From assembly GCF_029227855.1 (NCBI RefSeq), contig NZ_CP074356.1: DNA of 64,000 bases. One strand, written 5' to 3'. The stretch comes from Escherichia coli. Lineage in GTDB: Bacteria; Pseudomonadota; Gammaproteobacteria; Enterobacterales; Enterobacteriaceae. Under the pieces are notes generated by a model. It saw only the letters and a list, made by a program, of their open reading frames with translations. It did no database searches and was not told the origin of the DNA. Both the position numbers and the translations under genes were made by a program. Shown here piece by piece: positions 28,133 to 47,194 of the stretch (within the stretch, counting starts at the first letter, position 1; every line of letters starts with the position of its first letter).

Positions 28133-28157
28133 TGTTGATTATCCCTGCGGTGAATAA

Positions 28158-28196
28158 TGTCGATGATGTCGAAATGACACGTCGACACGGCGACGA
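28158..28196. promoter_or_regulatory. Candidate FhlA upstream activating region between the divergent hyp and hyc promoters
   Basis: Two direct TGTCGA repeats followed by an inverted TCGACA copy (tgtcgatgatgtcgaaatgacacgtcgaca); position matches the known FhlA-dependent hyc/hyp control region. Confidence 0.5.
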
Positions 28197-28244
28197 AATT
28201 CATCTTTAGCTTAAAAATCGCTTTAATAACAATAAATTAAAAGT

Positions 28245-28296: not shown

Positions 28297-28758
28297 ATGA
28301 CTATTTGGGAAATAAGCGAGAAAGCCGATTACATCGCACAGCGGCATCGTCGCCTACAGGACCAGTGGCACATCTACTGCAATTCGCTGGTTCAGGGGAT
28401 CACGTTATCGAAAGCGCGCCTGCATCACGCCATGAGCTGCGCGCCGGACAAAGAACTCTGTTTCGTCCTTTTTGAACATTTTCGCATTTACGTCACCCTG
28501 GCGGATGGCTTTAACAGCCACACCATCGAGTATTACGTCGAAACAAAAGATGGTGAAGACAAACAGCGGATTGCGCAGGCGCAACTGAGCATTGACGGCA
28601 TGATTGATGGCAAGGTCAACATCCGCGATCGCGAACAGGTTCTGGAACACTATCTCGAAAAAATCGCTGGCGTTTACGACAGCTTATACACCGCCATTGA
28701 AAACAATGTGCCGGTGAATTTAAGCCAACTGGTAAAGGGACAAAGCCCGGCAGCATGA
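28297..28758 (+). CDS. hycA: Formate hydrogenlyase regulatory protein HycA
   Basis: Track ORF 153 aa; first gene of the hyc operon. Confidence 0.9.
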   Translation: MTIWEISEKADYIAQRHRRLQDQWHIYCNSLVQGITLSKARLHHAMSCAPDKELCFVLFEHFRIYVTLADGFNSHTIEYYVETKDGEDKQRIAQAQLSIDGMIDGKVNIRDREQVLEHYLEKIAGVYDSLYTAIENNVPVNLSQLVKGQSPAA

Positions 28759-28882
28759 GCTGAGGCTTTGCCCGTTTTGCAGGCGTTACGCCTGTTTGGG
28801 GATGGGCGTGTCGATGAGTGTCGAAAATGACATTTCATCGGCATGTTTTCGTCAAAAATGACAATCACCTGAGGAATGCCTG

Positions 28883-36325: not shown

Positions 36326-36637
36326 ATGCACATCATTTCGAAAGCGCCATTTGAAGAGTGTGCGCGCAAATATCCTAACGACGCTCTGGCTCTACACTCA
36401 TTGTATCGGGTTATTAAGGAAACGGATTTTTCTACACCAGAAGAAATGCGAACGGCGTTTCCTAACCTCGACAATTTTAAATATCGCAACAAATGGTACG
36501 TTCTGGATGTCGGCGGGAACAATCTTAGGGTTATTGCCTACATAAACTTTGTTAATAAGCGGTTCTTTGTGAAGCACATAACGAATCACGCAGAGTATGA
36601 CAAACTGACACGTTACTACAGAGAGAACAAAGAATGA
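36326..36637 (+). CDS. Type II toxin, HigB-like (RelE/ParE superfamily mRNA interferase)
   Basis: Track ORF 103 aa; resembles E. coli HigB (MH.I.KA...YP, FP.LDNFKY, VGGN.LRV, TH.EYD); AAGGAAG Shine-Dalgarno; stop overlaps the next ATG (ATGA). Confidence 0.8.
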   Translation: MHIISKAPFEECARKYPNDALALHSLYRVIKETDFSTPEEMRTAFPNLDNFKYRNKWYVLDVGGNNLRVIAYINFVNKRFFVKHITNHAEYDKLTRYYRENKE

Positions 36638-37053
36638 CTGCTAATGCTGCACGCGCTGTTAAAGCAACAAGAGAACTGGTCAATGCAGTCCCCTTTCTGG
36701 GAGGCAGTGACTCAGAAGATGATTATCGTGAAGCACTGGAACTGGTCGAATATTTGATTGAAGAAGATGACACCAATCCACTTATCGACTTTCTGGCGAG
36801 CCGCATTGCAGAATATGAAAACAACAACGAAAAGTTTGCAGAGTTCGACAAAGCCGTTGCAGCAATGCCGGTTGGCGTGGCGTTACTTCGTACGCTGATT
36901 GATCAACATAATTTGACCTATGCGGATTTGAAGAACGAAATCGGCTCTAAATCTCTGGTCAGTCAGATTTTGTCTGGGCAACGATCCCTGACGATATCCC
37001 ATATTAAGGCACTTTCAGCCCGATTTGGCGTTAAGCCGGAATGGTTTCTTTGA
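36634..37053 (+). CDS. Type II antitoxin, HigA-like (XRE-type HTH)
   Basis: Track ORF 139 aa; C-terminal HTH (SKSLVSQILSGQRSLTISHIKALSARFGV); same architecture as HigA; translationally coupled to the upstream toxin. Confidence 0.8.
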   Translation: MTANAARAVKATRELVNAVPFLGGSDSEDDYREALELVEYLIEEDDTNPLIDFLASRIAEYENNNEKFAEFDKAVAAMPVGVALLRTLIDQHNLTYADLKNEIGSKSLVSQILSGQRSLTISHIKALSARFGVKPEWFL

Positions 37054-40278: not shown

Positions 40279-41292
40279 ATGATGACGACGATGCTGGAAG
40301 TGGCGAAGCGCGCCGGGGTTTCAAAAGCGACCGTTTCCCGCGTGCTTTCAGGTAATGGCTACGTCAGCCAGGAGACTAAAGATCGCGTGTTTCAGGCGGT
40401 AGAAGAGAGCGGTTACCGTCCAAACTTGCTGGCGCGCAATCTGTCGGCGAAGAGTACTCAGACGCTGGGGCTGGTCGTGACCAACACGCTTTACCACGGC
40501 ATTTATTTTAGTGAATTACTGTTTCATGCCGCGCGAATGGCGGAAGAGAAAGGGCGACAGTTGCTATTGGCAGATGGTAAACATAGCGCCGAAGAAGAGC
40601 GCCAGGCGATTCAGTATCTGCTGGATTTGCGCTGCGACGCCATTATGATTTACCCGCGTTTTTTAAGTGTGGATGAGATCGATGACATCATTGACGCGCA
40701 CAGTCAGCCGATAATGGTGCTTAATCGCCGCCTGCGCAAAAATAGCAGCCATAGCGTCTGGTGCGATCATAAACAGACCAGCTTTAACGCCGTGGCAGAG
40801 TTGATAAACGCCGGGCATCAGGAGATTGCTTTCCTTACCGGCTCGATGGATTCCCCCACCAGCGTTGAACGTCTTGCCGGGTATAAAGACGCGCTGGCGC
40901 AGCATGGTATTGCGCTCAATGAAAAACTTATCGCTAACGGTAAATGGACGCCTGCCAGCGGGGCCGAAGGGGTAGAAATGTTGCTCGAACGTGGGGCTAA
41001 ATTTAGCGCGTTAGTTGCCAGTAACGACGATATGGCGATAGGTGCGATGAAAGCGTTGCACGAGCGCGGCGTAGCGGTGCCAGAGCAGGTGTCAGTTATC
41101 GGATTCGATGATATCGCTATTGCCCCCTACACCGTTCCGGCGCTCTCCAGCGTAAAAATTCCGGTAACTGAGATGATTCAGGAAATTATTGGACGGCTGA
41201 TTTTTATGCTCGATGGTGGGGATTTCTCACCGCCGAAAACCTTCAGCGGAAAACTGATCCGCCGCGGCTCCCTCATTGCTCTTTCGCAATAA
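40279..41292 (+). CDS. ascG: LacI-family repressor AscG
   Basis: Track ORF 40216..41292 (TTG-initiated extension); start set to the ATG at 40279 (MMTTMLEVAKRAGVSKATVSRVL), 6 nt after an AAGGG Shine-Dalgarno. Confidence 0.88.
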   Translation: MMTTMLEVAKRAGVSKATVSRVLSGNGYVSQETKDRVFQAVEESGYRPNLLARNLSAKSTQTLGLVVTNTLYHGIYFSELLFHAARMAEEKGRQLLLADGKHSAEEERQAIQYLLDLRCDAIMIYPRFLSVDEIDDIIDAHSQPIMVLNRRLRKNSSHSVWCDHKQTSFNAVAELINAGHQEIAFLTGSMDSPTSVERLAGYKDALAQHGIALNEKLIANGKWTPASGAEGVEMLLERGAKFSALVASNDDMAIGAMKALHERGVAVPEQVSVIGFDDIAIAPYTVPALSSVKIPVTEMIQEIIGRLIFMLDGGDFSPPKTFSGKLIRRGSLIALSQ

Positions 41293-41296
41293 ACAT

Positions 41297-41335
41297 TGTC
41301 ATCACATGTCATCGTCACTAGTGTCGATGACATCG
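41297..41335. promoter_or_regulatory. Repeat cluster upstream of hydN: two direct TGTCATC copies plus an inverted GATGACA, and the palindrome CGATG-a-CATCG
   Basis: Read directly; architecture parallels the TGTCGA repeat cluster in the hyc/hyp control region. Confidence 0.35.
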
Positions 41336-41440
41336 TTTTTCCTGCATTACAGAATTTAATTTCCTTAAATAACAGTAAATTAAAAACTGGCATGATTTGT
41401 GAATGTATCGGCGCATTAACTGTCATTGCTGGAGAATTTG

Positions 41441-41968
41441 ATGAACCGTTTCATCATTGCTGACGCGAGTAAATGTATTGGTTGCCGTACCTGTGAAGTG
41501 GCGTGCGTGGTTTCTCATCAGGAAAATCAGGACTGTGCATCGCTGACCCCGGAAACATTTTTACCGCGTATCCATGTCATTAAAGGTGTGAACATTTCCA
41601 CGGCGACAGTTTGCCGTCAGTGTGAAGATGCACCGTGCGCTAACGTCTGCCCGAATGGTGCTATCAGTCGTGATAAAGGGTTTGTTCATGTGATGCAGGA
41701 GCGTTGCATTGGTTGCAAAACCTGCGTTGTGGCTTGCCCGTATGGCGCGATGGAAGTGGTGGTACGTCCGGTGATCCGCAACAGTGGCGCAGGGCTTAAC
41801 GTACGGGCTGACAAAGCCGAAGCCAATAAATGCGACCTGTGCAACCATCGTGAAGACGGCCCGGCGTGTATGGCGGCTTGCCCGACCCATGCGCTGATTT
41901 GTGTCGATCGTAATAAACTTGAACAACTGAGCGCAGAAAAACGTCGCCGTACGGCGCTGATGTTCTAA
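41441..41968 (+). CDS. hydN: Ferredoxin-type electron-transfer protein HydN
   Basis: Track ORF 41426..41968; start set to the ATG encoding [19 protein letters not shown] (175 aa), preceded by a GGAGA Shine-Dalgarno. Confidence 0.9.
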
Positions 41969-47126: not shown

Positions 47127-47182
47127 GTCAAAATGACTATCAATCAAATGGTCGATATGACAATATCTATAGTCAAATTGAC
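47127..47182. promoter_or_regulatory. Three NorR enhancer sites (GT-N7-AC)
   Basis: GTCAAAATGAC (47127..47137), GTCGATATGAC (47151..47161) and GTCAAATTGAC (47172..47182) in the norR/norV intergenic region. Confidence 0.8.
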
Positions 47183-47194
47183 AGTGAGGCAAAG

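Follow-up and report, generated by a model that had tools for sequence, protein, structure and literature searches.

Upstream of hydN in Escherichia coli lies a small cluster of related repeats, and the question is which function, if any, it serves. It could be the binding region of the activator of hydN-hypF, the terminator of the preceding gene ascG, the operator of another protein, or a chance arrangement. The window, that is, the whole 64,000-nt stretch of DNA analysed, is a segment of the E. coli chromosome with the order mutS ... fhlA-hypEDCBA / hycABCDEFGHI ... ascBF / ascG-hydN-hypF / norWV-norR ... srl ... recA. In the RefSeq annotation of an identical E. coli stretch, ascG and hydN flank the spacer that contains the cluster. 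The stop codon TAA of ascG is at 41290–41292, and the cluster begins 5 nt later. It lies 106–144 nt upstream of the hydN start codon, the ATG at 41441. When 41285–41445 is aligned with the sequence of K-12 MG1655, two bases differ, one in the last sense codon of ascG and one in the spacer at 41355. Both differences are outside the cluster and the promoter, so results obtained with K-12 can be transferred directly to this locus.

The membership of hydN-hypF in the FhlA/formate regulon has been known since 1996, and a sigma-54 promoter has been mapped here in genome-wide work. Reviews and genome-scale papers, with reference to Maier et al. 1996, describe the operon as dependent on FhlA, formate and sigma-54. 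The cluster is, with a probability of about 0.85, the UAS (enhancer) of this sigma-54-dependent hydN-hypF promoter. The regulatory region is ordinary and previously described, and the enhancer reading is largely right but already known. The same applies to the proposal of the initial annotation that the activator of the hyc and hyp genes may also act on hydN-hypF: it agrees with the documented dependence of the operon and with a half-site shared by the two enhancers, but it is not new. Both sigma-54 binding at the promoter and the dependence of the operon on FhlA, formate and sigma-54 have been demonstrated in published work. The anatomy of the cluster, its conservation, its helical phasing and the half-site in common with the hyc enhancer are direct observations of the present analysis. 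The cross-genus definition of the site, the phasing, the shared half-site and a trade-off between the -24 and -12 elements are refinements, not discoveries. They have little weight for discovery, and their practical value is corrective.

Four repeat elements had been listed in the initial annotation, and all of them are present. TGTCATC is found at 41297–41303 and 41307–41313, its inverted copy GATGACA at 41326–41332, and CGATGaCATCG at 41325–41335. The cluster is better described as one near-perfect 28-nt palindrome plus one upstream half-site (Table 1). The two arms of the palindrome are complementary at 13 of 14 positions.

Table 1. Features of the ascG-hydN spacer and of hydN, in coordinates of the window.
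Feature	Position	Strand	Basis
Upstream half-site (first TGTCATC repeat)	41297–41304	+	Family consensus yGTCrWCA
28-nt palindrome, ATGTCATCGTCACT and AGTGTCGATGACAT, probable enhancer (UAS) core	41306–41333	.	Repeat finder
Conserved part of the palindrome, TGTCATCGWCA-N4-TGWCGATGACA	41307–41332		
Central 14-mer CGTCA-CTAG-TGTCG	41313–41326	.	Fits the published FhlA matrix form TGWCr-N4-TGWCA
T-run after the palindrome, possible U-tract of an ascG terminator	41336–41340	+	Sequence: TTTTT
Weak IHF-like site TAACAGTAAATTA, 2 mismatches to WATCAANNNNTTR	41370–41382	+	IHF-consensus match
Sigma-54 promoter CTGGCATGATTTGTGAA	41387–41403	+	ChIP-seq motif identity; genomic SELEX; matrix; conservation
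Predicted transcription start	41414	+	Promoter geometry: about 12 nt past the -12 element, 27 nt before the ATG
hydN CDS, first gene of the regulated hydN-hypF operon	41441–41968	+	ORF list and RefSeq annotation

The repeats might be a chance arrangement without function. In favour of this, the 7-mer TGTCATC is not over-represented window-wide: 13 copies are present versus 8.0 ± 2.7 in shuffles, and a count of 13 is reached in 8 of 100 shuffles. A grouping of three copies in 36 nt is nevertheless improbable, with roughly 4e-3 for the whole window by arithmetic from the 7-mer density. The conserved palindrome pattern, by contrast, occurs only once in the window and in none of the 100 shuffles, even allowing 3 mismatches. 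An Rfam search of 41150–41550 on both strands matched no family.

Conservation was analysed with hydN loci from 80 species-level Enterobacteriaceae genomes. The resulting 81 upstream sequences, the window included, are all distinct and represent more than 15 genera, among them Escherichia, Salmonella, Citrobacter, Klebsiella, Raoultella, Enterobacter, Kluyvera, Kosakonia, Lelliottia, Trabulsiella, Cedecea, and Pseudocitrobacter. The core used for anchoring, CGWCA-N4-TGWCG, is matched in 81/81 sequences, and 76 of the 80 hydN loci match the full 24-nt palindrome pattern without a mismatch. From the upstream gene to the promoter, no block other than the palindrome shows strong conservation, and its flanks diverge almost completely. 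This already refutes the chance reading, the probability of which is practically negligible. The conserved block is TGTCATCG(T/A)CA-N4-TG(T/A)CGATGACA. Its central four bases vary freely (19 different tetramers); in its arms, almost the only changes are at the W positions, besides one symmetric swap in the outer arms in Cedecea. In the anchored alignment of the 81 sequences the upstream half-site shows moderate conservation, and its place in other genera reads TTGTCA, TCGTCA or TCGACA.

Variation at the inner W position of one side is independent of that on the other: T/A is seen in 52 sequences, T/T in 26, and A/T in 3. This is the pattern of a protein that recognises a specific sequence and tolerates A or T at one position, not that of a base-paired stem. 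The published FhlA matrix (PMC7658346) has the same A/T ambiguity, at its positions 3 and 12. The swap in the two Cedecea sequences, where TGTCA/TGACA is changed to TGACA/TGTCA on both outer arms, would be allowed by the protein-recognition and base-paired-stem models alike.

In 12 species without ascG upstream, hydN still has the palindrome, which excludes AscG as a requirement; an AscG operator was rejected on this ground. The hydN enhancer is retained in E. whittamii, E. albertii and another Escherichia species despite the loss or replacement of ascG. Within E. coli, a 501-nt query around the cluster (41100–41600) matches 5,425 of 5,426 complete genomes. Less than 80% of the query is matched in about 730 of them, which fits a similar loss or replacement of ascG.

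Could the palindrome and the T-run instead be an intrinsic terminator, an RNA hairpin with a U-tract, of the upstream gene? This gene would be ascG in E. coli and hycI where the asc genes are absent, and it is oriented towards the palindrome in every case checked. The palindrome of E. coli alone is able to form an RNA hairpin of about 11 pairs with -11.4 kcal/mol, and in sequences with perfectly paired arms the value is about -15 to -16 kcal/mol. Folding of the 60-nt stretch is more favourable than that of shuffled sequences (z = -2.5). TTTTT follows 3 nt past the stem in E. coli, and a T-run is kept in Escherichia and Salmonella. However, with a threshold of at least 5 T in the 8 nt after the stem, the T-run is present in just 20/81 species, versus 81/81 for the palindrome. 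The arms are invariant in sequence rather than covarying. A T/T mismatch is found in the stem in 26 sequences, those of E. coli and Salmonella among them. No terminator is called here by a consensus terminator scan, and a terminator does not need the fixed helical phase to the downstream promoter described below. These facts make it unlikely that termination is what the palindrome is for. Because of the limited distribution of the T-run, such a role is at most a local extra in Escherichia and Salmonella, and the suggestion of a weak ascG terminator can stand only as a secondary role there.

For an enhancer of this type, a sigma-54 promoter is needed downstream. None with convincing -24/-12 elements had been noticed nearby in the initial annotation, but one is present. 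The sequence CTGGCATGATTTGTGAA is identical letter for letter to the sigma-54 ChIP-seq site OS26, which is assigned to hydN and flagged as an EcoCyc experimentally confirmed promoter at a distance of 27 nt (Table 1 of PMC4591121). The RpoN holoenzyme selects the ascG-hydN spacer in vitro in genomic SELEX (PMC8743547). The homologous sequence of Salmonella, TGGCACGATTCGTGTATA, is a ChIP-chip site, and hydN-hypF is 13-fold sigma-54-dependent there (PMC3844500). The predicted start agrees with the hydN entry of "distance 27" (PMC4591121). A scan with the sigma-70 promoter consensus gave one promoter-like match, at chance level.

The -24 element is TGGCAT at 41388–41393 and contains the invariant GG at 41389–41390. 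The -12 element, GTGA, is non-canonical and not of the TTGC type, with G at 41401 and A at 41402 where C is expected; C is seen at that position in 173 of 186 known promoters. This is probably why the promoter was missed. More generally, it escapes consensus searches since its -12 element lacks the C, and pointing this out is one corrective use of the analysis. The matrix of the 186 promoters gives it 10.6 bits, compared with 18.5 for hypA, 16.3 for norV and 14.8 for hycA in the same window. Because sigma-54 binding is documented in vivo (PMC4591121), the hydN promoter is a functional, non-canonical member of its class. A promoter at this place, about 53 nt before the ATG, is conserved in 81/81 sequences. 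The enhancer and the promoter are conserved together, as all 81 sequences keep both the palindrome core and the sigma-54 promoter.

The two promoter elements show a trade-off across genera. In 52 sequences a canonical -24 element (TGGCAC/T) is always paired with a -12 element lacking the C (GA or GT). In the other 29, a degenerate -24 element (TGGAAC, TGGCTC, TGGCGC, or TGGCGT) is always paired with a canonical TGCA at -12. Among the 81 sequences, the window and the 80 other loci, no sequence has both elements canonical or both degenerate. This may simply reflect two clades. Elsewhere in the window, a strong sigma-54-like motif, TGGCACATCTACTGCA, is present inside hycA at 28366–28381. It scores 14.9 bits, on a par with the hycA promoter itself.

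The distance between the cluster and the promoter is that of an enhancer. With its centre at 41319.5, the palindrome lies 70 bp away from the -24 GG and at about -95 relative to the predicted start. The cluster in full extends from about -117 to -80, within the range of roughly 60–130 bp for enhancer distances. Among the 81 sequences, 50 have 69–72 bp and 31 have 59–62 bp between the palindrome centre and the -24 GG; values of 63–68 bp are never seen. The two distance classes are one helical turn apart. This bimodality fits an activator that must occupy a particular helical face with respect to the polymerase. Since the two classes coincide with clades, few independent events lie behind the phasing. 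Based on this comparison, the hydN enhancer can be defined more cleanly than from E. coli alone: TGTCATCGWCA-N4-TGWCGATGACA, with 60 or 70 bp separating it from the -24 GG.

Between the enhancer and the promoter, the best match to the IHF consensus is at one fixed position, 18 nt before the -24 TGG, in 51/81 sequences. The element WATCAANNNNTTR is perfect in 12/81 sequences, versus 0.8% of shuffled spacers. An involvement of IHF at hydN may be suggested by this.

Which protein binds the palindrome? The published 13-site matrix of FhlA (PMC7658346) was used for comparison. The central 14-mer is the best match to this matrix in the ascG-hydN spacer, considering both strands, with 7.5 and 7.0 bits. 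However, the hydN site ranks only 157th in the window. Across the 81 species the central site scores 6–10 bits with a median of 7.5, about 1e-3 per position. Because these values are weak in the window and across species, and non-significant for a 200-nt region, the matrix score is no proof on its own. The top matches in the window (16.4, 15.4 and 12.0 bits) are all in the hypA-hycA and hycA-hycB spacers. Since the matrix under-scores a site that is conserved, regulon predictions based on it are likely to miss the hydN site.

On the other side, there are similarities in the units that compose the site. The central 14-mer shares the form YGWCR-N4-TGWCR with CGTCAAAACTGACG of fdhF and with TGTCGAAAATGACA and CGTCAAAAATGACA of the hycA-hycB spacer. 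The 9-mer TGTCGATGA is present in 6 copies in the window versus 0.82 expected. Three of the copies are in FhlA-type spacers, at 28158 (hypA-hycA), 28809 (hycA-hycB) and 41322 (ascG-hydN). The half-site GWCGATGAC has three copies in the 64-kb window, and two of them are the arms of the hydN palindrome. The hypA-hycA-hycB loci of eight other genera were compared, and GWCGATGAC is found at a fixed place in the hypA-hycA enhancer of seven of them. In Klebsiella and Raoultella, the hypA-hycA spacer has it as an inverted pair, TGTCGATGAC ... GTCATCGACA. This sharing across genera indicates that one and the same half-site unit makes up both the hydN site and the hyc enhancer. The likeness to the repeat cluster between hypA and hycA, pointed out in the initial annotation, is thus real. 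The FhlA consensus quoted in a review, CATTTCGTACGAAATG, was also compared by eye with the hydN sequence, and no convincing match was found; apparently, this consensus describes the same TGWCGAAATG units in another register.

The strongest match to the FhlA matrix in the window is TGTCGAAAATGACA with 16.4 bits, in the hycA-hycB spacer (28809–28863), where CGTCAAAAATGACA also scores 12.0 bits. The block GTGTCGA-N3-GTGTCGAAA ... TTTCGTCAAAAATGAC of this spacer is conserved in nine genera.

The architecture of the hydN site can be compared with those of known enhancers. The hypA-hycA enhancer (about 28155–28200) is about 70–90 bp upstream of a sigma-54 promoter and contains TGWC/GWCA units, like hydN. 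Both also have an A/T-rich spacer and an IHF-like WATCAA...TTA element before the promoter, and the hycA copy of this element is seen across genera. The hyc enhancer, however, is a run of units at 9-/8-nt spacing, TGTCGATGA-TGTCGAAA-TGACA-CGTCGACA, whereas hydN has a compact 26-nt palindrome, nearly perfect and with 6/9/6 spacing, to which one extra half-site is added. By the published FhlA matrix, the hyc units score 15–16 bits, compared with 7.5 for hydN. In the fdhF enhancer of E. coli K-12, the central unit is CGTCA-AAAC-TGACG, against CGTCA-CTAG-TGTCG in hydN, where many species have TGACG in place of TGTCG. Its site CGTCAAAACTGACG is 80 bp from the -24 GG, compared with 70 or 60 bp at hydN, and is therefore on the same helical face. 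Unlike hydN, fdhF has A-rich spacers and flanking TTTCGT repeats, and lacks the outer arms TGTCATCG and CGATGACA. The successive half-sites of hydN, including the upstream one, are spaced by 10, 6, 9, and 6 nt, unlike those of the hyc and fdhF enhancers.

The weak fit to the FhlA matrix and this unusual spacing would both be understandable if the palindrome were the operator of another DNA-binding protein, such as AscG, NorR, HyfR or some other regulator. In addition, GT-N7-AC strings, a loose NorR core quoted in a review, are found twice in the arms. The norVW operon, 6 kb away, offers a known system for comparison. Its NorR enhancer (47150–47190) is located about 100 bp before a sigma-54 promoter and contains inverted GTCA/TGAC half-sites, and NorR, like FhlA, is an activator with a GAF sensory domain. 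This enhancer nevertheless consists of three separate GTCA-N3-TGAC sites, GTCAATTTGAC, GTCATATCGAC and GTCATTTTGAC, and the hydN arms do not fit their spacing. The NorR reading was rejected for this difference. HyfR is a close paralogue of FhlA and would be indistinguishable from it by sequence alone. The recurrence of the hydN half-site in the hyc enhancer, a known target of FhlA, in seven of the eight other genera argues against a regulator other than FhlA. So does the position of the palindrome: FhlA is the documented activator of the sigma-54 promoter with which it is in phase, and the distance between the two is that of an enhancer. The operator of a different protein is quite improbable overall, and FhlA is preferred as the protein acting on the palindrome.

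FhlA binding data presumably exist for hydN. In the literature text searched, to which Maier et al. (1996) and Leonhartsberger et al. (2000) do not belong, no statement of an FhlA footprint on the exact hydN bases was found. Leonhartsberger et al. (2000) reportedly analysed FhlA binding sites. We infer the contact of FhlA with exactly these bases, and likewise its oligomeric state on the site.

The activation of hydN-hypF could then proceed as follows. FhlA, a bacterial enhancer-binding protein, would be activated by formate and bind the palindrome, whose centre is at about -95 from the start, through its GWC-type half-sites. It would bind the extra upstream half-site as well. The A/T-rich spacer would bend, possibly aided by IHF at the weak site around 41370–41382. 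This bend would bring the FhlA oligomer to the closed complex of RNA polymerase and sigma-54 waiting at 41387–41403. ATP hydrolysis by FhlA would open the promoter, and hydN-hypF would be transcribed along with the rest of the formate regulon.

It can be speculated further that three peculiarities of the locus belong together, a joint reading that we regard as tentative and rather doubtful. The hydN enhancer would represent a distinct architecture of FhlA sites, a 26-nt nested palindrome of four GWC half-sites with a fifth one upstream, under-scored by the FhlA matrix. It would be phase-locked to a promoter in which a canonical -24 element has been traded against a canonical -12 element across genera. 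The same palindrome would have a dual use, at the DNA level and as the RNA hairpin of the terminator of the upstream gene in Escherichia and Salmonella.

Two minor observations concern the surroundings. A perfect 7-nt inverted repeat, TGATGAA-ccgt-TTCATCA, is present at 41439–41456 and overlaps the start codon of hydN. At the RNA level, the repeat could include the AUG in a paired stem. Because it lies within the codons for the conserved peptide MNRFII, it may result from coding alone. Between hycI and ascB (36326–37053) there are two overlapping ORFs of 103 and 139 aa. For the corresponding genes, the best-matching RefSeq genome carries the annotations HigB-family toxin and helix-turn-helix antitoxin.
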